33,620 bases of DNA from positions 1 to 33,620 of IMG/VR virus record IMGVR_UViG_3300043449_000866. One strand, 5' to 3'. Below the pieces are notes generated by a model. That model was not told where the DNA came from. It did not search any database and worked only from the letters and a program-made list of their open reading frames with translations. Below, piece by piece: positions 1 through 33,620 of this stretch. This DNA is from a virus. The position numbers and the translations under genes were made by a program. Position 1 is the stretch's first letter, and every line of letters begins with the position of its first letter.

Positions 1-127
1 CAGACAGAATCATCTGGGCTTTACAAGGTAGGTTCGAGCATGGCAGAATTGTGTTAAATTCGGAAGAAGATTGGGATGAGTTTGTAGACCAGTTAATCCT
101 GTTCCCTGCTCAAGGAGTCCATGATGA
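1..127. repeat. Terminal direct repeat copy 1, identical to 33494-33620; an assembly overlap showing the contig is circular
   Basis: Bases 1-127 (cagacagaatcatctgggc...gtccatgatga) read identically at 33494-33620. The reading frame of the large terminase is continuous across the join. Confidence 0.95.
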
Positions 128-1121
128 TTTGTGCTTTATTGCCAACACGCAAATATCAACTCCTACTGGATTAAAAAGCATTGCCCAACTAAAGGTTGGC
201 GACCTTGTTGACACCCCTGAAGGCCCAAGAAAAGTTATTGCTCAGTCAATGACCAATGCAAACGCAGAGGTTTATTCTTTGCGTGGAAAACTTATAGGCA
301 CTGGCAATCATCCAATCATGACGAAACGTGGATGGATAGACTTGTGCAAAGTAACAAATGATGATATGCTTGTGTATCAACACAAAGGAGTTTCATCATG
401 GGTTTTCCAAGTAAAGTTGGCATTGTCAAAGAGTCTGTTTACTTTAACGGATACAAATACAACCGCTATCCAGAATCTAAAAAACTGGCTCACCGTAGAT
501 ACTTTACCAAAGCAGGAGGTGGCTTATTGCACCGCCATGTCTGGGAATTTCATAACGGAGAAATACAAAAGGGGCATCACATCCACCACAAGGATGGGAA
601 CTTTCTCAACAATGACATCTCAAATTTGGAGTGTCTTGAGTCAAAAGCTCACTTTGCCGAACACAAGGAAGATAGAAGTAAAAACGCCAAAAGACCAGAA
701 CAATTGGCACATTTGGACAAAGCTAGGGAAAAAGCGTCAGAGTGGCATGGCTCACCAGAAGGGCTTGAGTGGCATAGCAAGAACTCCAAAACCGCTTGGG
801 CTAATAGAGGGTTTGTTACGCACACTTGCCAAGAATGTAAAAACGAGTTTCAATCTCGCAAAACAACAAAGGTCTATTTTTGCTCTGGGAAATGCTCTGC
901 TACTGCTTGGAGAAAAAAATATCCCGACTACTATAGCCCTGAAGCAAAGGCAAAGCGTTTACAATTTGACAATTGAGGGTGCACATTGTTATTATGCTAA
1001 CGGAGTTTTAGTTCATAACTGTGACTCCCTCAGTTACATTGACCAACTGGCTGTTACGTCTTATATGGAAGAAGATGATAGCGAGGATTGGCAACCTGTA
1101 GATATTATTAGTGGGGTATAA
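3..1121 (+). CDS. terL: Terminase large subunit, C-terminal part: end of the N-extein (to 131), intein (132-1019) and 33-aa C-extein (1020-1118) plus stop
   Basis: Same frame as 32467.. after the 33493-bp circular shift. The track ORF 51-1121 is its GTG-initiated subset. The extein junctions read GVHDDL|C...VHN|CDSLSY. Confidence 0.9.
   Translation, partial: DRIIWALQGRFEHGRIVLNSEEDWDEFVDQLILFPAQGVHDDLCFIANTQISTPTGLKSIAQLKVGDLVDTPEGPRKVIAQSMTNANAEVYSLRGKLIGTGNHPIMTKRGWIDLCKVTNDDMLVYQHKGVSSWVFQVKLALSKSLFTLTDTNTTAIQNLKNWLTVDTLPKQEVAYCTAMSGNFITEKYKRGITSTTRMGTFSTMTSQIWSVLSQKLTLPNTRKIEVKTPKDQNNWHIWTKLGKKRQSGMAHQKGLSGIARTPKPLGLIEGLLRTLAKNVKTSFNLAKQQRSIFALGNALLLLGEKNIPTTIALKQRQSVYNLTIEGAHCYYANGVLVHNCDSLSYIDQLAVTSYMEEDDSEDWQPVDIISGV
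132..1019 (+). mobile_element. Intein (296 codons) in the terminase large subunit
   Basis: Cys1 starts block A (CFIANTQISTPTG). Block B reads GTGNHPIMTKRGW (TxxH). Blocks F and G read VYNLTIEGAHCYYANGVLVHN, followed by a +1 Cys (tgt 1020-1022). The insertion interrupts the HDD motif of the nuclease domain. Confidence 0.85.
398..976 (+). CDS. HNH homing endonuclease, nested inside the intein but in a different reading frame
   Basis: 192-aa ORF with the HNH motif HRHVWEFHNGEIQKGHHIHHKDGNFLNNDISNLECLESKAHFAEH and a C4 zinc ribbon (CQEC...CSGKC). AAAGGAG at 384-390 lies 7 nt before the ATG at 398. Its frame (398 mod 3 = 2) differs from the intein frame (132 mod 3 = 0). Confidence 0.8.
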   Translation: MGFPSKVGIVKESVYFNGYKYNRYPESKKLAHRRYFTKAGGGLLHRHVWEFHNGEIQKGHHIHHKDGNFLNNDISNLECLESKAHFAEHKEDRSKNAKRPEQLAHLDKAREKASEWHGSPEGLEWHSKNSKTAWANRGFVTHTCQECKNEFQSRKTTKVYFCSGKCSATAWRKKYPDYYSPEAKAKRLQFDN

Positions 1122-1123
1122 GA

Positions 1124-3094
1124 ATGGAATTCCAAGAACCTAGCGACTCAGACAAAGAACTTGTTGATTTCGTAGTAAATCATTGTGATCGTTGGAGAGA
1201 CTACCGAGACACAAACTATCTGTCTGATTGGCTAGAGTATGAGCGTATCTTCAATGGTGAGTGGGATGTCCAAGACAAAACCCGTGAGTCTGAGCGTTCA
1301 AGAATCGTTACCCCCGCTACCCAACAAGCCGTAGAGACACGCCATGCCGAGATCATGGAAGCCATCTTTGGTCAGGGTGAGTTCTTTGACATTCAAGACG
1401 ATATTCGTGATGTCAACAACAATCCCCTAGACGTTGAGGCTATCAAAGCACAACTCATGGAAGACTTCAAAGTCGATAAGATTCGCAAATCTATTGACCA
1501 AATTGAACTTCTTGCTGAACTGTATGGTACTGGAATCGGTGAGATTGTTGTCAAAACAGAGAAAGTCTTTGTTCCTAGTACGCAAGCAATACCTGGTCAA
1601 ACAGGACAAGCCGCTATCGGAGTCGTAGAACAAGACCGCATTGCAGTCAAGATTGTTCCAGTTAACCCCCGCAACTTCTTGTTTGACCCCAATGGAACAT
1701 CTATTGATGACTGTATGGGTGTGGCTGTTGAAAAGTATGTATCCATCCACAAGGTCGTCAAAGGTCAAGAAGATGGCATTTATCGCAAGGTAAAAGTCGG
1801 CACAGACTCTATGGACTCTGACTTAGAACCTACCCAAGAGGTTACTCAGTACGAAGACGATAAAGTTAAATTATTGACCTATTATGGTTTAGTACCTAGA
1901 GAGTACATTGAAGAACTAGAAGCGGATGGTGCTGAAGTAGAAGACCTATTCCCTGAAGACAGTATTCAGGATGAGTATTCCGATTTGGTTGAGGCTATCG
2001 TAGTGATTGCCAATGATGGGACTCTTCTCAAAGCTGAAAAGAACCCATACATGATGAAGGATCGCCCAATCCTTGCTTATCAGGACGATACAGTTCCTAA
2101 TCGCTTATTGGGTCGTGGTACTGTCGAGAAGGCTTATAACTCACAAAAGGCTATTGATGCCCAAGTGCGTAGCCACTTAGATTCACTAGCTCTGACAACT
2201 AGCCCAATGATGGCTATGGATGCCACTCGCCTCCCAAGGGGTGCTAAGTTTGAAGTAAAGCCAGGAAAGGCAATCCTGACAAACGGCAATCCCAATGAGA
2301 TTCTGTTCCCGTTCAAGTTTGGCAATACTGATGGTTCTAATCTGACAACTGCCAAAGAGTTTGAGCGTATGCTTTTGATGGCAACAGGCACTCTTGACTC
2401 TCAGGGCATGGTTACTGCCGTTGCCAGAGATGGCGGTCAGGGTGGTATATCGATGGCAGTAGCTTCGATTATCAAGAAATACAAGCGTACCTTGGTGAAC
2501 TTTCAAGAGGATTTTATGATCCCCTTCATCACCAAAGCCGCCTATCGCTATATGCAGTTCGATCCAGAGCGTTATCCTACTGTGGACATGAAATTCATTC
2601 CTACGGCAGCACTCGGAATCATTGCCCGTGAGCATGAACAACAGCAAATGATTGGTTTATTGCAGACTCTTGGCCCGAATACCCCTGTTTTGCCTATCAT
2701 TTTGAAGGGCATTATGGCTAATTCTTCTCTGTCAAACCGATATGAGTTGATTGCCATGCTTGACAAGATGTCTCAGGCTGACCCACAGGCCCAGCAAGCG
2801 GCTCAGATGCAACAACAATTGGCTATGCAACTGGCTCAAGCACAGATTGCTGTCCAAACTACACAAGCAGAGCAGAACAAGGCTGAAGCGCAAAAGTTAT
2901 TGACTGAAGCGCAATTGATGCCTATTGAGTTGCAAGCTAAGAGCATGGCGGCTAACACCAAGAACCTACCTACTGATGATGCTTTGGCTTCAAAAGAGTT
3001 TGATAAGCGTGTCAAAGTTGCTGAATTGATGCTTAAAGAGGCGGATATTCAGAACAAGGCTAAGATTGTTGAAAAACAGATGACTAGACAATGA
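1124..3094 (+). CDS. Portal protein
   Basis: 656 aa, immediately downstream of terL, with a Gln/Ala-rich coiled C-terminal tail. Size and position are typical of a portal. Confidence 0.75.
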   Translation: MEFQEPSDSDKELVDFVVNHCDRWRDYRDTNYLSDWLEYERIFNGEWDVQDKTRESERSRIVTPATQQAVETRHAEIMEAIFGQGEFFDIQDDIRDVNNNPLDVEAIKAQLMEDFKVDKIRKSIDQIELLAELYGTGIGEIVVKTEKVFVPSTQAIPGQTGQAAIGVVEQDRIAVKIVPVNPRNFLFDPNGTSIDDCMGVAVEKYVSIHKVVKGQEDGIYRKVKVGTDSMDSDLEPTQEVTQYEDDKVKLLTYYGLVPREYIEELEADGAEVEDLFPEDSIQDEYSDLVEAIVVIANDGTLLKAEKNPYMMKDRPILAYQDDTVPNRLLGRGTVEKAYNSQKAIDAQVRSHLDSLALTTSPMMAMDATRLPRGAKFEVKPGKAILTNGNPNEILFPFKFGNTDGSNLTTAKEFERMLLMATGTLDSQGMVTAVARDGGQGGISMAVASIIKKYKRTLVNFQEDFMIPFITKAAYRYMQFDPERYPTVDMKFIPTAALGIIAREHEQQQMIGLLQTLGPNTPVLPIILKGIMANSSLSNRYELIAMLDKMSQADPQAQQAAQMQQQLAMQLAQAQIAVQTTQAEQNKAEAQKLLTEAQLMPIELQAKSMAANTKNLPTDDALASKEFDKRVKVAELMLKEADIQNKAKIVEKQMTRQ

Positions 3095-3330
3095 ATCAGG
3101 AACTCCAGAAGTATTACGAAGAGCGTTTTTCCATGATGTCCACTCAAGGGTGGAGAGAATTGATGGAAGATGTTGACAAAATGATTGAACCTTTGAATAA
3201 TATTTCAACAATTGCAGATGAAAAAAGTCTACAATTCAGAAAAGGTGAGTTATCAATCCTTATTTGGCTGAAAAACTTGAAACAAGTCAGCGAAAGAGCA
3301 TTTGAGGACTTAAATGAAAAGAATGTATGA
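3091..3330 (+). CDS. Hypothetical protein (79 aa)
   Basis: ATGA overlap with the portal stop; protein-like composition. Confidence 0.6.
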   Translation: MNQELQKYYEERFSMMSTQGWRELMEDVDKMIEPLNNISTIADEKSLQFRKGELSILIWLKNLKQVSERAFEDLNEKNV

Positions 3331-3541
3331 ATTTGCCTGTGTAAATGGGCATAAAACTTCGAGACTTACTGTTTATGAGACAACGAGTCTTGTGTGTGAG
3401 TGTGGTGAGGAATCTCATCGCACTTTATCTGCGCCTTATTTTAGGCTTGAAGGATGGTCTGGTTCATTCCCAACGGCTCACGCCAAGTTTGATAAAAGCC
3501 ATAACGACAAGTTGAAATCTGAGCGCAAACTCAACTCATAA
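3314..3541 (+). CDS. Small zinc-ribbon protein
   Basis: 75 aa with CVNGH...CECGEESH. An alternative ATG lies at 3323. Confidence 0.55.
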   Translation: MKRMYEFACVNGHKTSRLTVYETTSLVCECGEESHRTLSAPYFRLEGWSGSFPTAHAKFDKSHNDKLKSERKLNS

Positions 3542-3599
3542 GCAATTATGCCGAGTTGAATCTCCTACAACCGATAGACGGCAGGAAAAGGAAAGAAGT

Positions 3600-4343
3600 A
3601 TGTTAGTTGACAACGACAAAGAAGAGTTTGGTGAGTTAGAGATCGAACAACAGAAGATTGAGCAAAAGGCTGAACTTCCTGAGAAATACAGGGACAAAAG
3701 TTTAGACGATATTGTGAGGATGCACCAAGAGGCTGAAAAGCTAATTGGAAAGCAAGCACAAGAAGTAGGCGAAGTCCGTAAGTTAGCCGATGAACTTATT
3801 AAGCAGAACCTTGGGTCACGACAGCAACAGACTAGACAGGAAGAGCCTGAAGTAGATTTCTTTGAGAATCCACAGAGGGCAGTTCAAAGGACAGTTGATA
3901 GTCACCCAGACATCATAGCGGCACGTCAAGTAACGCTAGAAATGAAAAGGTCACAGATTCAGCAAAGGTTAGCGCAAGAACATCCCGACTTTGGAGACAT
4001 CGCCAAGGATCAGGATTTTGCAAATTGGGTGAAGTCTAGCCCTGTTCGCATTAAGATTTTTGAGCAAGCCGATTCTGGATATGATTTCGACTCAGCCAAT
4101 GAATTGCTATCTACCTACAAGCAACTTCGTGGCGTTAAGAATAAGCAAGTAAGTGATGCGGGAGAAGCATCAAGAAAGCAAACTCTTAAAGCTGTTGGAG
4201 TTGATACGGGTGGTTCTGGTGAATCATCAAAGAAAGTATATCGTAGGGCTGACCTTATTCGGCTGAAAATGCAAGACCCTAACCGCTATGAAGCGTTATC
4301 TGATGAAATCATGGTAGCGTATCAAGAAGGTCGGGTCAGGTAA
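3600..4343 (+). CDS. Scaffolding protein (putative)
   Basis: 247 aa, highly charged and helical, lying between the portal and the major capsid gene. Confidence 0.6.
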   Translation: MLVDNDKEEFGELEIEQQKIEQKAELPEKYRDKSLDDIVRMHQEAEKLIGKQAQEVGEVRKLADELIKQNLGSRQQQTRQEEPEVDFFENPQRAVQRTVDSHPDIIAARQVTLEMKRSQIQQRLAQEHPDFGDIAKDQDFANWVKSSPVRIKIFEQADSGYDFDSANELLSTYKQLRGVKNKQVSDAGEASRKQTLKAVGVDTGGSGESSKKVYRRADLIRLKMQDPNRYEALSDEIMVAYQEGRVR

Positions 4344-24694: not shown

Positions 24695-25141
24695 ATGAAT
24701 ACCATAATGCTTGGAGAAGGTCGGATAGAAACCCCTCTATCCACCCTTGGAGAACCTATGTCTAAAGAAAACAACATGGATAACTTTGACAGATTCTGGG
24801 AGACTTGGCCTAAATCATTTAGAAAAGGCGGTAAGTCTGCCTGTAGAGTGAAATGGAAGAAGTTTTACTGTGATACCTGTGCAGATCAGGTCATCAAACA
24901 TATTGAGTGGATGAAAACAACCGATGCTTGGAGAAAAGACGATGGTGCTTTCATTCCCGCACCTTTGGTCTATCTGAATCAACAGAGATGGGATGGGGCT
25001 GAGATTCCTGAATCGTTCGGGATCAAAAAAGAAACTGGAATTGATCCTGCATTGGCAAAGATTGAGGCTGACAACAAAAAAGCCGTTCCTATGCCTGAAC
25101 ACATTAGGCAAGCAATGGCTCAATTAAGGAGCAAAGCATGA
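24695..25141 (+). CDS. Conserved phage protein (148 aa), function unknown
   Basis: AGGAG lies 7 nt before the ATG at 24695. The motifs FDRFWETWPK...GGKSACRVKW and FIPAPLVYLNQQRWDG recur in phage early regions. ATGA-coupled to the next gene. Confidence 0.55.
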   Translation: MNTIMLGEGRIETPLSTLGEPMSKENNMDNFDRFWETWPKSFRKGGKSACRVKWKKFYCDTCADQVIKHIEWMKTTDAWRKDDGAFIPAPLVYLNQQRWDGAEIPESFGIKKETGIDPALAKIEADNKKAVPMPEHIRQAMAQLRSKA

Positions 25142-25878
25142 TCCACTATCACGGCTTGCCAATAACTCCATCTACAGCCGCTGTCAAAGCAATTGAAAAT
25201 GGTCATGCGTTTGTTTCGTTTGCTCACTCTGACCAGCTTTCAACAGCAATTGAGGTGTGTCAGTCTTTCGCCATAGATAATGGAGCATTCTCTGCCTGGC
25301 GATCTGGCAATCCAATCCAAGATTGGCAATCTTTCTACGATTGGTCACTTAATCTCAAAAAAGTACCTTCTTGCGACTTTGCAGTAATTCCTGACGTTAT
25401 TAATGGAACTGAAGCAGACAACGATGCTTTGCTGAAAGATTGCCCGCTGCCGACATGGTTTGGCGCACCAGTTTGGCATATGCATGAATCTTTAGAGAGA
25501 CTTGAACAACTTGCAAATACTTATGTTCGGGTCTGCATTGGTAGTTCTGGGGAGTTTTCTACAGTAGGAACGTCAAACTGGTGGGTCAAGATGAGTCAAG
25601 CCATGAGAGTCATTTGTGATGACATGGGAAGACCTGCTTGCAAACTGCATGGTTTAAGGATGCTAGACCCTGCAATCTTTACCAAATTACCATTTTCATC
25701 AGCAGATAGCACCAATATTGGCAGAAATGTTGGCATTGATGTGCATTGGAAGCATGGCAATTATTTACCTCCTACCAAAGAGGCAAGAGCGCAAGTCATG
25801 CGTTCTAGGATCGAGGCATTTAATGCACCTTCACAATGGAATTTTTATCAACCAATGGAGCAAGAAACACTTTTATGA
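25138..25878 (+). CDS. dpdA: DpdA-like (tRNA-guanine transglycosylase superfamily) DNA 7-deazaguanine transglycosylase, putative
   Basis: 246 aa with AIDNGAFSAW (compare the TGT DSGGFQ motif), VWHMHE, CIGSSGE, KLHGLRML and PFSSADSTN. Its context, next to a YhhQ-like precursor transporter, supports the call. Recognised by eye only. Confidence 0.55.
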   Translation: MIHYHGLPITPSTAAVKAIENGHAFVSFAHSDQLSTAIEVCQSFAIDNGAFSAWRSGNPIQDWQSFYDWSLNLKKVPSCDFAVIPDVINGTEADNDALLKDCPLPTWFGAPVWHMHESLERLEQLANTYVRVCIGSSGEFSTVGTSNWWVKMSQAMRVICDDMGRPACKLHGLRMLDPAIFTKLPFSSADSTNIGRNVGIDVHWKHGNYLPPTKEARAQVMRSRIEAFNAPSQWNFYQPMEQETLL

Positions 25879-26117
25879 ACAAATACACAACTAAGTTTAT
25901 TGCGTTATGCCCAATAAACAACAAACAAATAGTTTATCAATTGGAAATTAAACATTCTGAGCAAATAATGATTGAGAAAATCCTAGAAGAAGTAGGCAAA
26001 TACACATCAGCATTCCATGAGCGAATAGCAGATGAATTGTTTACATTGTTTGGTGGTGAGCAGACTTTGACTGCCAATCATCATGGCGTTGTTATTCAAA
26101 CAGAAAGAAAATTATGA
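25875..26117 (+). CDS. Small QueF-like single-domain protein (80 aa, possible T-fold), putative
   Basis: ATGA overlap with the dpdA-like stop. FIALCP...(29 aa)...FHERIADELF parallels the QueF pattern FTSLCP...FHEDCMN, though spaced 5 residues closer. The QueF NADPH motif is not evident. Confidence 0.35.
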   Translation: MNKYTTKFIALCPINNKQIVYQLEIKHSEQIMIEKILEEVGKYTSAFHERIADELFTLFGGEQTLTANHHGVVIQTERKL

Positions 26118-26596
26118 TTTTTGCTTTAATTGCTTATGCCGTGGCAATGATTGCCGCAAACCTTTTGGTGGCGACATTCGGCCCATCAGTAACTGCAATC
26201 AATGCCTTTTTACTAATTGGACTTGATCTGACTTTAAGAGATTGGCTTCATTTCAGGCTCAAAACTTGGCAAATGGGTGGCTTGATTGTTGGAACTGGCT
26301 TAATCACCTACGCTTTAAACCCTGCTTCGGGAATGATTGCAGTAGCTTCTGCGGTGTCATTCTTGGCGGCTTCCATAGTTGATTGGGCTATTTTTGTAAA
26401 AACCACAGGCTCATGGATTAAACGAGCAAATGTTTCAAATACTGCTGGTGCTGCCGTTGACTCGTTACTTTTCCCAACGATTGCATTTGGTGCTTTGATG
26501 CCTGAGATTGTTGCGCTTCAATTTGTAGCCAAGGTTTCAGGCGGTGCGGTTTGGTCTTATGTACTCGAAAAGAAACTAAAAAATGTCCCATTATGA
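26114..26596 (+). CDS. yhhQ: YhhQ/VUT-family (DUF165) membrane protein, putative preQ0/preQ1 transporter
   Basis: 160 aa and polytopic. FLLIGLDLTLRDWL, ASAVSFLAASIVDWAIF and SNTAGAAVDSLLFPTIAF parallel conserved YhhQ segments (ATDLTVR; ASFMAY..QILDV.VF; SN..D...FF.IAF). Confidence 0.7.
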   Translation: MIFALIAYAVAMIAANLLVATFGPSVTAINAFLLIGLDLTLRDWLHFRLKTWQMGGLIVGTGLITYALNPASGMIAVASAVSFLAASIVDWAIFVKTTGSWIKRANVSNTAGAAVDSLLFPTIAFGALMPEIVALQFVAKVSGGAVWSYVLEKKLKNVPL

Positions 26597-32105: not shown

Positions 32106-32474
32106 ATGGAACAATTGAAAAGAGGAAGAGGAAGACCAAAGGGGTCAGTCAAGATGACCATACAGAGGTTTGCTGACAATCCGCCTCTTGTACTACCTAA
32201 GACAGACCATCAACGTCTCAAGGAGCTTAAGGAGCTGATGATCAGGAGTGGTGGTAAGGATGTGGCTCAGAAGGTTATTGAGATAGCCCTTAATGATGAC
32301 CATCCACACCAGTTGGTAGCACTAAAGATGTGTCTTGATAGGACTCTACCTGTTTCTTTGTTTGAAAAGGATAAGAGTCAGAGAAGTGCCGTAACCATCA
32401 ATATCACTGGTTTGGGACAAGAACCGACCATAATTGATGAACAACCTGAAGACGTAGAGGCTAAATATGGCTGA
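32106..32474 (+). CDS. terS: Terminase small subunit (putative)
   Basis: 122 aa, AAGGAG RBS, N-terminal basic RGRGRPKGS DNA-binding-like arm, and a stop overlapping the terL start. Confidence 0.55.
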   Translation: MEQLKRGRGRPKGSVKMTIQRFADNPPLVLPKTDHQRLKELKELMIRSGGKDVAQKVIEIALNDDHPHQLVALKMCLDRTLPVSLFEKDKSQRSAVTINITGLGQEPTIIDEQPEDVEAKYG

Positions 32475-33620
32475 TCTGAACTTCTCTCTGCTTCCTTGGC
32501 AACAAGAGGTATTTAAGGATACGACTAGGTTCAAGGTTGTGGCTGCTGGTCGTAGGTGTGGTAAGTCACGGATGGCGGCAGTTACCCTACTGATTGAAGG
32601 ACTCAAGTGTCCACAAGGCTCTGCAGTTCTTTACGTCTCCCCCACTATGGGGCAGAGTCGTCAAATCATTTGGGATTTATTGCTAGACCTTGGAAGAGAG
32701 GTTATTCAGAGCAGTCATGTGAACAACCTAGACATTACCCTGATAAACGGGGCTAGGATATACGTCCGTGGTGCTGATAGACCAGATACCCTTCGTGGCG
32801 TTAGCTTGACCTATGCCGTTCTAGATGAGGTTGCCGACATTAAGCCCGAGGCATGGGAACAGGTCATCAGGGCCAGTTTGTCTGATAAACGGGGTAGAGC
32901 ACTCTTTATTGGCACTCCAAAGGGTAGAAATTGGTTCTACGATACCTTCAAACTTGGTGAGTCAGAGGATGATCCTGATTGGAAGTCTTGGCACTTTACC
33001 ACTGCTGATAACCCCTTGATTGACCAAAAAGAGATAGATTCCGCTAAAAAGACCCTAAGTTCCTTCGCTTTTAAGCAAGAGTTTATGGCTTCTTTCACCA
33101 ATGCGGGTTCTGACATCTTCAAGGAAGAGTGGATCAAATACGGGGTAGAGCCTAGTTATGGAAGCTACTTCATCGCTGTTGACCTTGCGGGATTCGAGGA
33201 AGTTGCCAAACAAGCCGCTAATTCTAAGAAGCGTCTTGACGAATCTGCTATCTCAATAGTTAAGGTCACAGATGATGGAAAGTGGTTTGTTAAGAAAATT
33301 GAACACGGCAGATGGGACATTCGAGAGACTGCTGCCAAGATTCTGATGGCTATTAGGGACTACCGCCCTTTAAGCGTGGGAATAGAGAGGGGGGCGTTAA
33401 AGAACGCTGTTTTGCCTTATCTGAGTGACCTTATGAGAAAGAACAACACCTTTGCTCATATCGTAGATTTGACTCATGGGAATAGAAAAAAAGCAGACAG
33501 AATCATCTGGGCTTTACAAGGTAGGTTCGAGCATGGCAGAATTGTGTTAAATTCGGAAGAAGATTGGGATGAGTTTGTAGACCAGTTAATCCTGTTCCCT
33601 GCTCAAGGAGTCCATGATGA
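32467..33620 (+). CDS. terL: Terminase large subunit, N-terminal part (ATPase domain and most of the nuclease domain); runs off the window end and continues at base 128
   Basis: ATG at 32467 overlaps the stop of the upstream ORF (ATGGCTGA). I translated the frame by hand with no stop up to 33620. Walker A-like VVAAGRRCGKS, Walker B-like LTYAVLDEV, and nuclease-domain FIAVDLAG. The track omits it because no stop lies inside the window. Confidence 0.9.
   Translation, partial: MADLNFSLLPWQQEVFKDTTRFKVVAAGRRCGKSRMAAVTLLIEGLKCPQGSAVLYVSPTMGQSRQIIWDLLLDLGREVIQSSHVNNLDITLINGARIYVRGADRPDTLRGVSLTYAVLDEVADIKPEAWEQVIRASLSDKRGRALFIGTPKGRNWFYDTFKLGESEDDPDWKSWHFTTADNPLIDQKEIDSAKKTLSSFAFKQEFMASFTNAGSDIFKEEWIKYGVEPSYGSYFIAVDLAGFEEVAKQAANSKKRLDESAISIVKVTDDGKWFVKKIEHGRWDIRETAAKILMAIRDYRPLSVGIERGALKNAVLPYLSDLMRKNNTFAHIVDLTHGNRKKADRIIWALQGRFEHGRIVLNSEEDWDEFVDQLILFPAQGVHD
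33494..33620. repeat. Terminal direct repeat copy 2, identical to 1-127
   Basis: Same 127-nt string as the window start. Position p at the left end equals p+33493. Confidence 0.95.

Follow-up and report, generated by a model that had tools for sequence, protein, structure and literature searches.

The stretch of viral DNA analyzed here (IMG/VR virus record IMGVR_UViG_3300043449_000866, positions 1 to 33,620; hereafter the window) contains a terminase gene, terL, interrupted by a predicted intein at 132 to 1019, and within the intein, at 398 to 976, lies a gene for an HNH endonuclease in a different reading frame. The two likely form a composite selfish element, in which an I-HmuI-like HNH homing-endonuclease gene is overprinted, in the +2 frame, on a class-1 intein. 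The HNH gene occupies the part of the intein that would ordinarily hold an in-frame endonuclease domain. Our comparisons establish the anatomy of the element, its exact empty site, selection on both frames, a sporadic distribution, and wide conservation of the layout, and they extend a recently described arrangement to a large, phylogenetically wide, and stable family of HNH_3 endonucleases. Much of the anatomy had been proposed in an earlier note made from the DNA letters alone, and everything that note reported seeing in the sequence holds up.

The intein and its nested endonuclease gene

All features described here lie on the strand given (+). The terL frame (position mod 3 = 0) is open from 3 to 1121 and reads ...FPAQGVHDDL / CFIANTQISTPTG...GTGNHPIMT...VYNLTIEGAHCYYANGVLVHN / CDSLSYIDQL... 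to its stop, with slashes at the intein boundaries. These separate the end of the terL N-extein (3 to 131), inside the RNase H-like nuclease domain, from the C-extein with its stop (1020 to 1121; CDSLSYIDQLAVTSY...), which was defined by comparison with intein-less alleles. The same comparison confirms the boundaries that the earlier note had drawn for the intein in this frame: the insert relative to empty alleles is exactly 132 to 1019, that is, 888 nucleotides (nt), a multiple of 3, or 296 codons. The insertion point is close to the end of the TerL nuclease domain, in a conserved motif (...HDDx-xD(S/A)xxY, the hyphen marking the insertion). The predicted spliced TerL has 419 amino acids and is matched by Terminase_6N and Terminase_6C in Pfam.

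The insert has the sequence blocks of a splicing domain. It opens with Cys1 (TGC, 132 to 134) in block A (CFIANT), carries T57-G-N-H60 of block B within GTGNHPIMT, and ends in His-Asn (H295 and N296) followed by the +1 Cys. T57, N59, and H60 are invariant in 15 relatives; in the C-terminal lobe V276, L279, A289, N290, G291, L293, H295, and N296 are invariant, and Y277 and N278 nearly so. AlphaFold2 modeling of the intein frame gives pLDDT (predicted local distance difference test) values of 78 to 90 for the N-terminal splicing lobe (residues 1 to 84; 132 to 383) and the C-terminal splicing lobe (residues 264 to 296; 921 to 1019; blocks F and G; 85 to 88 in this lobe), whereas the stop-free linker between them (residues 85 to 263; 384 to 920) remains below 50. 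A profile search of the kind suggested in the earlier note gives the same division, with Hint-type models at the ends of the intein frame and HNH_3 in the open reading frame (ORF) at mod 3 = 2. The Hint-type models of Pfam (Vint, Hint_2, Intein_splicing, and PT-HINT) cover both ends of the insert only, at residues 44 to 122 and 303 to 339 of the intein-frame protein; the N-terminal lobe is matched by Vint, Hint_2, and Intein_splicing, and Vint, at 28.9 bits, exceeds its cutoff of 27. Rfam returned no match over the whole window, so nothing in the insert resembles a group I intron or another known RNA. Judged by its sequence, 132 to 1019 is thus best described as a putative class-1 intein in the nuclease domain of terL. 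We infer that it splices, since its catalytic residues are preserved and TerL is an essential protein.

The nested gene begins with an ATG at 398 and ends with a TGA at 974 to 976, in the frame mod 3 = 2 [(398 − 132) mod 3 = 2], and has 192 codons plus the stop. Its Shine-Dalgarno (SD) sequence, AAAGGAG, lies at 384 to 390, 7 nt before the ATG, and its TGA falls inside block F, 43 nt before the intein end, both as first described. GGAG is held at the same spacing in the relatives L007 to L011. In many distant nested loci an SD-like motif also precedes the ATG; the position of the ATG is conserved, and the SD is often 4 to 8 nt away. Upstream, the HNH frame is closed by a stop at 362 to 364, 11 codons before the ATG.

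The HNH motif and C4 zinc ribbon seen in the initial reading are borne out by a Pfam HNH_3 (PF13392) match of 54.1 bits against a cutoff of 24.8 and by residue conservation. HNH_3 is the sole Pfam family matched by the protein at E ≤ 1, with no match to Endonuclease_7. We collected 147 homologs of the protein. In an alignment of 49 homologs, H63, H64, N76, and H85 are invariant, D66, N71, N72, and H89 are at least 90% conserved, and the zinc-ribbon cysteines C144, C147, C162, and C166 are invariant or nearly so. The copy in the window has neither active-site substitutions nor premature stops. Its AlphaFold2 model reaches a mean pLDDT of 93.4, and the top match of the model among PDB folds, and the only probable one, is I-HmuI (1u3e; Foldseek probability, 0.82).

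At its 3' end the HNH gene does double duty. Positions 921 to 976 encode HNH codons 175 to 192 and the stop as well as part of the C-terminal splicing lobe, so that the last 18 HNH codons (921 to 973) are truly dual-coding. At the 5' end, synonymous change is almost absent from HNH codons 1 to 28 (398 to 481): among six close relatives, 2 of 28 third positions are variable, versus 77 of 146 in codons 29 to 174 (Fisher p = 5e-6). The intein-frame translation over the same 28 codons (SSWVFQ.KLA.SKS.FTLT) is also kept in more distant proteins. RNA folding at the internal start (365 to 490) is no more stable than that of shuffled sequences (z = −0.12), indicating that RNA structure does not explain the conserved synonymous sites. 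Dual coding and translation initiation are both possible sources of this constraint.

Scanning of 1 to 1300 for promoters and terminators gave sites at chance level, and no promoter-like one precedes the HNH start. Within block F, at 966 to 995, lies a near-consensus sigma-70-like site (TTGACA, 18 nt, TATTAT with TG).

Selection on the two frames

To read selection from substitutions, we counted variable columns by intein codon position in an alignment of the window with its close relatives L007 to L010, whose HNH proteins are 92 to 96% identical to that of the window; no indel occurs across positions 1 to 1121 of this alignment. Intein codon position 2 corresponds to HNH codon position 3. Outside the overlap, changes concentrate at intein position 3, with 9, 1, and 24 variable columns at positions 1, 2, and 3 in the N-extein, 14, 9, and 37 in the intein N lobe, and 10, 4, and 28 in the C-extein. 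Within the overlap (398 to 973) the counts are 20, 66, and 12. The coding periodicity therefore switches to the HNH frame within the overlap and reverts outside it, and the 66-column peak at the third position of HNH codons reflects purifying selection in the HNH frame. The same DNA also yields higher amino acid identity when read in the HNH frame than in the linker frame (96 versus 88, 95 versus 76, 92 versus 75, and 81 versus 65%), and for distant relatives the values are about 50 versus 28%.

The intein frame is open over the HNH gene beyond chance. The intein frame is the +1 frame of the HNH ORF and contains no stop there; the +2 frame contains 18. In the 17 other long ORFs of the window there are 357 +1-frame stops in 6453 codons, a rate that predicts about 10.6 for the HNH ORF where none is observed (Poisson P(0), ~2.5e-5); this is close to the 1 in 10^4 that had first been estimated. 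Shuffling synonymous codons within the HNH ORF, a deliberately conservative procedure in which the protein stays unchanged, as does the codon pool of the ORF, itself already biased, gives a mean of 2.2 stops (P = 0.017). Over the 78 nested loci analyzed, the median P of an open frame after such shuffling is 0.028. By comparison, the equivalent of the intein frame contains 1 to 12 stops in non-nested homologs and 2 to 12 in free-standing ones. The frame-specific substitutions and the avoidance of stops uphold the original proposal that the intein frame is kept open by selection, as TerL must be read through this region and spliced. In the genes of the window the +1 frame has roughly half the stops of the +2 frame, and this lower load may be why the +1 frame can stay open.

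Since the substitution pattern, the identities in the two frames, and the low pLDDT agree, we conclude that the protein sequence of the linker is unconstrained, predicted to be unfolded, and selected only for the absence of stops. The locus is accordingly a clean case of overlapping genes, in which one frame is selected for its protein and the other for stop absence only, and the sharp switch in codon-position pattern at the boundaries makes it a useful test case for methods that detect overlapping genes. Apparently, an insert of ~180 disordered residues is tolerated by the splicing domain.

Distribution of the layout and signs of mobility

The nested layout is the prevailing state of this HNH family. 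Among 123 loci with a family member, 100 are nested, 22 are free-standing, and 1 is broken. The nested loci, which come from phages and prophages across many phyla, share a common relative frame and an open intein frame, in keeping with the proposal of a contiguous intein that holds a separate, frame-shifted endonuclease gene. Blocks F and G (VY[ND]LTVE..H.Y[YF]ANG[IV]LVHN followed by C) are found in the intein frame of all nested loci except L076, where the segment inspected was displaced by an early TAG in the HNH frame. The HNH stop always falls inside the C-terminal splicing blocks, at a distance of 1 to 79 nt from the intein end (modes, 43 and 55 nt), and is usually built from block F codons, for example TAT-GAY or GTT-GAR. 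The HNH frame is intact in 99 of the 100 nested loci. None of the 123 loci has an in-frame version of the window HNH family, and in none of the fetched loci is the HNH frame continuous with the extein.

IMG/VR holds at least 579 relatives of the HNH protein; in 74 of the best 80, which were examined, the intein frame is open over the whole HNH match, inside an ORF of 600 to 1190 codons. Searches of GenBank phages with tblastn found HNH homologs inside the annotated terL of Tetrasphaera phage TJE1, Clostridium phage phiCDHM19, Acinetobacter phage Highwayman, and Rhodobacteraceae phage LS06-2018-MD07; in all four the HNH frame is offset by +2 from a terL coding sequence that is open throughout. 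In the GenBank records of these phages (HQ225832, LK985322, OZ038341, and OP947163) only a terminase large subunit of 680 to 800 amino acids is annotated, with the intein and the HNH gene unannotated. More generally, gene callers miss the nested HNH gene, and domain scans would show an intein with a large unexplained insert.

Of 37 loci from genomes and metagenome-assembled genomes (MAGs), 20 show this nesting, among them a complete Corynebacterium chromosome, candidate phyla radiation (CPR) bacteria, and three archaeal bins; the nested MAG bins comprise Bacteroides, Chloroflexota, Nitrospiraceae, Planctomycetales, Chlamydiae, and Desulfovibrio. The host range of the layout thus takes in phages of Actinobacteria, Firmicutes, Proteobacteria, Bacteroidota, and CPR bacteria, together with the archaeal bins. 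The 78 nested loci analyzed fall into 54 clusters at 70% HNH identity, and the layout persists down to 29 to 40% HNH identity. This persistence at low identity, across many clusters, many bacterial bins, and some archaeal ones, shows a stable, long-conserved architecture, not a transitional state, and does not sustain the idea in the earlier note of a snapshot of how mini-inteins acquire endonucleases.

Within its own phage population the element is sporadic. Using a spliced TerL built from L007, we fetched 80 IMG/VR sequences of 85 to 99% amino acid identity and found the junction motif in 72. Seventy of these have an uninterrupted GVHDDL-P-DSLSY and two carry the intein, indicating that TerL works without the element. 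An example of empty-allele DNA, from L087, reads ...CATGATGACTTGCCTGACTCCCTCAGTTAC..., around CATGATGACTTGCCTGACTCC. The +1 extein codon (1020 to 1022) is TGT (Cys) in the intein allele versus CCT (Pro) in all 70 intein-less alleles.

Where the element is present, it is more conserved than its host gene. Nucleotide identity of L009 and L010 to the window is 72 to 78% in the exteins, 85 to 89% in the intein N lobe, and 90% in the HNH gene. The 3' end of terL is 79 to 98% identical in L007, L008, and L010. The portal gene 3' of terL (window 1124 to 1400) is essentially unalignable in the same three relatives, at 42 to 46% nucleotide identity; a recombination boundary thus adjoins the endonuclease-bearing gene.

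Other states of the element were also found. In L023, L060, L065, L072, and L081, the five non-nested homologs of the IMG/VR set, a free-standing HNH homolog directly follows the stop of an intein-less terL (at ~2900 to 3650 in each locus), and in Acinetobacter phage BP10 (L004, 2513 to 3154) one lies just upstream of terS. L076 (2965 to 3270) has a TAG in the HNH frame and an intact TerL/intein frame. The proteins P0128, P0129, and P0132 have mini-inteins of the same family at the same site in the TerL nuclease domain, without the HNH and linker region. L011 carries a 2-nt deletion in the intein N lobe (at ~365) that breaks terL, and phiCD119 (L006, 1815 to 2600) has several frame breaks relative to phiCDHM19 and a terL annotated as two ORFs; these breaks are either errors or marks of dead copies. 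The nested, free-standing, decayed, and mini-intein states look like stages of a homing cycle. In a nearest-neighbor comparison, free-standing and nested HNH proteins are intermixed at ~50% identity, which gives no direction of change.

Mechanism, alternatives, and relation to known systems

If the element works as its parts suggest, ribosomes starting at the terL ATG would read all 296 intein codons. Lobes 1 to 84 and 264 to 296 would form a Hint fold around the disordered linker, which needs only to lack stop codons, and the intein would excise itself to leave the 419-amino-acid TerL. Splicing would be in cis, as the host frame is continuous in the window. Separate initiation at the internal SD and ATG (384 to 400) of the same mRNA would give a free HNH enzyme of 192 amino acids. 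In mixed infections this enzyme could nick or cut an intein-less terL near the insertion site, and repair templated by the intein allele would then bring the intein into the empty allele together with the nested gene and the +1 Cys codon next to it.

Several points weigh against this reading. Splicing, internal initiation, cleavage, and homing are, for every member of the family, functions that we infer. Internal initiation within a translated gene is usually inefficient, and a recognizable SD is absent from many distant nested loci. Intein_splicing scores 25 to 26 bits against a curated cutoff of 35.8, and Hint_2 likewise falls below its threshold (26.4 versus 28.4 bits); we attribute both to the linker, which splits the match. 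The fold match to I-HmuI is weak (E = 0.044; TM, 0.24 to 0.26; 17% identity), and when the HNH alignment was run as a profile against PDB sequences, nothing matched at E ≤ 0.01. With Pro in the empty alleles and Cys needed for splicing, viable homing must co-convert the +1 codon. Finally, the free-standing homologs examined always adjoin terminase genes, which fits either a parked homing enzyme or a packaging role.

The last point bears on an alternative in which the nested HNH protein works with the terminase, like gp74 of HK97, and is kept in terL for coexpression. Besides the position of the free-standing homologs (upstream of terS in BP10 and downstream of terL in five IMG/VR contigs), the known association of HNH genes beside terminase genes with packaging (PMC3592412) speaks for such a role. 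We nevertheless consider it unlikely. A packaging HNH of the gp74 type is expected to be constantly present in a lineage, and 70 of 72 close relatives with the same TerL have neither intein nor HNH gene, so that packaging in this phage group can do without HNH. Moreover, conservation is higher in the element than in its host gene, decayed and HNH-less forms occur, the Pfam family is HNH_3, and the best fold match is a homing enzyme.

It is much less probable that the HNH gene is an inactive relic, open by inertia while only the TerL frame is selected. Locus L076 is in exactly such a state, and the homing-cycle model predicts endonuclease decay, but in the overlap of the window substitutions concentrate at HNH third positions (66 versus 20 and 12), the residues for catalysis and zinc binding show no or almost no variation across the 49 homologs, the protein is modeled at high confidence (pLDDT 93.4), and 99 of 100 nested loci keep the HNH frame. 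Hardly any more credit can be given to programmed −1 frameshifting, by which HNH would be made as a fusion to TerL-N and the intein N lobe and not from its own start. The HNH frame is indeed −1 relative to the intein frame, and SD-like sequences inside genes can promote frameshifting, dnaX being an example. However, no slippery heptamer (X XXY YYZ) lies between the HNH-frame stop at 362 to 364 and the ATG, the ATG is conserved at the homologous position with an SD often at 4 to 8 nt, and RNA structure around the start is unremarkable (z = −0.12).

An artefact of assembly or sequencing, in which two compensating indels shifted an ordinary in-frame HNH domain, is refuted by the comparative data even though the window is a single metagenome contig and real frame breaks are seen in L011 (a 2-nt N-lobe deletion) and phiCD119: L007 to L010 have no indel over 1 to 1121, 100 loci from unrelated samples, among them isolate phages and the complete Corynebacterium chromosome, share the relative frame, the ORF has its own SD, ATG, and upstream stop, and its frame runs into the extein in none of the fetched loci. 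The earlier note had named such indels as the first thing to exclude. A functional linker peptide was also considered and was rejected as the main explanation.

A further proposal about the composite element goes beyond its homing function, and we offer it only tentatively, as something rather less likely than its negation. Overprinting may be the settled, selectively favored design of a large and ancient class of composite mobile elements, as opposed to a chance step toward an in-frame endonuclease domain. An out-of-frame HNH gene might weld nuclease and intein together, free the nuclease protein, and throttle its expression through competition with ribosomes translating terL, with codons 1 to 28 as a dual-coding or regulatory segment that couples both products.

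The layout itself has a close precedent, which supersedes the novelty suggested in the earlier note, whose maker was aware of no contiguous intein with a nested out-of-frame endonuclease. Gosselin, Arsenault, and Gogarten (2025; bioRxiv 10.1101/2025.01.02.630785) described inteins with a frame-3, endonuclease VII-like endonuclease, in actinophages only; their survey covered PhagesDB only, and they called the layout rare. They also reported antisense LAGLIDADG and VSR-like cases and proposed an origin by invasion of free-standing endonuclease genes. As in their elements, the intein of the window is contiguous and has its endonuclease ORF on the sense strand, flanked by the splicing blocks and in frame 3 (+2); along the endonuclease the intein frame lacks both stops and structure, and TerL is one of the host genes. 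The Keitabear intein from their supplement, which we translated, has the same +2 offset and a smaller, unrelated nuclease. Their endonucleases have ~130 amino acids, are endonuclease VII-like (IPR004211), and carry a CVDHDH motif, in contrast to the 192-amino-acid HNH_3 protein with a zinc ribbon found here, and the window HNH family, unlike theirs, occupies at least 100 nested loci across many phyla. A tblastn search of the phage collection with the window HNH protein returned none of their actinophages. For one HNH family, then, a layout called rare is common, old, and stable, which bears on how inteins and endonucleases came to be united ("splicing first, nuclease later"). The family also offers many candidate site-specific enzymes, each with a known candidate target site.

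Other known systems share single features with the element. In fractured genes (Dassa et al. 2009; PMC2677866), a free-standing homing-endonuclease gene separates the halves of a split intein; like the window, they have a separately translated endonuclease gene in the position of the endonuclease domain and occur in phage or environmental hosts, but there the host is split into two ORFs and trans-spliced, whereas the window and 99 other loci have a single open frame. Canonical inteins carry an in-frame HNH domain (Dalgaard et al. 1997, as cited by Gosselin et al. 2025); they too pair an intein with a homing nuclease of the HNH superfamily, which in the window is a separate product in another frame. 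From the same laboratory as Gosselin et al. comes a description of "hidden" out-of-frame HNH insertions of the ShiLan type in methylase genes of phages (Arsenault et al. 2025; PMC11855218). There, as here, the host frame stays open across the HNH ORF; unlike the window, with its complete intein and strong SD, these insertions have no splicing domain, are thought to be retained in the host protein, and were found to have no ribosome binding site. The title of a 2026 preprint refers to an out-of-frame endonuclease in a cyanobacterial dnaX intein. In mycobacteriophages, TerL inteins occur only in the ATPase domain (Kelley et al. 2016; PMC5050341), unlike the nuclease-domain site of the window. 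Our literature search found no paper describing the window HNH_3 family nested in inteins and none linking TJE1, phiCDHM19, phiCD119, or Highwayman to inteins.

I-HmuI, the nicking enzyme of Bacillus phage SPO1 (PDB 1u3e), resembles the window protein in belonging to HNH_3 and in being a free, monomeric enzyme whose gene lies within a self-splicing element. It differs in its carrier, a group I intron and not an intein, and the window HNH protein has a C-terminal zinc ribbon; the C-terminal DNA-binding part of I-HmuI is a helix-turn-helix.

The rest of terL lies at the other end of the window. Its N-extein of 386 codons runs from 32467 to 33620, and the gene resumes at 128 across a circular junction, as located by tblastn and a terminal repeat: residues 1 to 384 of the spliced TerL of L007 match 32467 to 33618, and positions 1 to 127 repeat 33494 to 33620 as a 127-nt direct repeat. 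Given this repeat, the contig is a circularly assembled, probably complete phage genome of ~33.5 kb, with terL spanning the junction. A megablast search of window positions 1 to 3000 against GenBank phages gave no match. The TerL fragment of the window is deposited as JGI protein P0121, labeled "hypothetical protein." Farther along, an ORF at 25138 to 25875 is queuine tRNA-ribosyltransferase-like (phrog_887, E = 2e-69), and near it, at 26114 to 26593, is an ORF for a Vut_1/YhhQ-like transporter. Such gene pairs suggest 7-deazaguanine modification of phage DNA.

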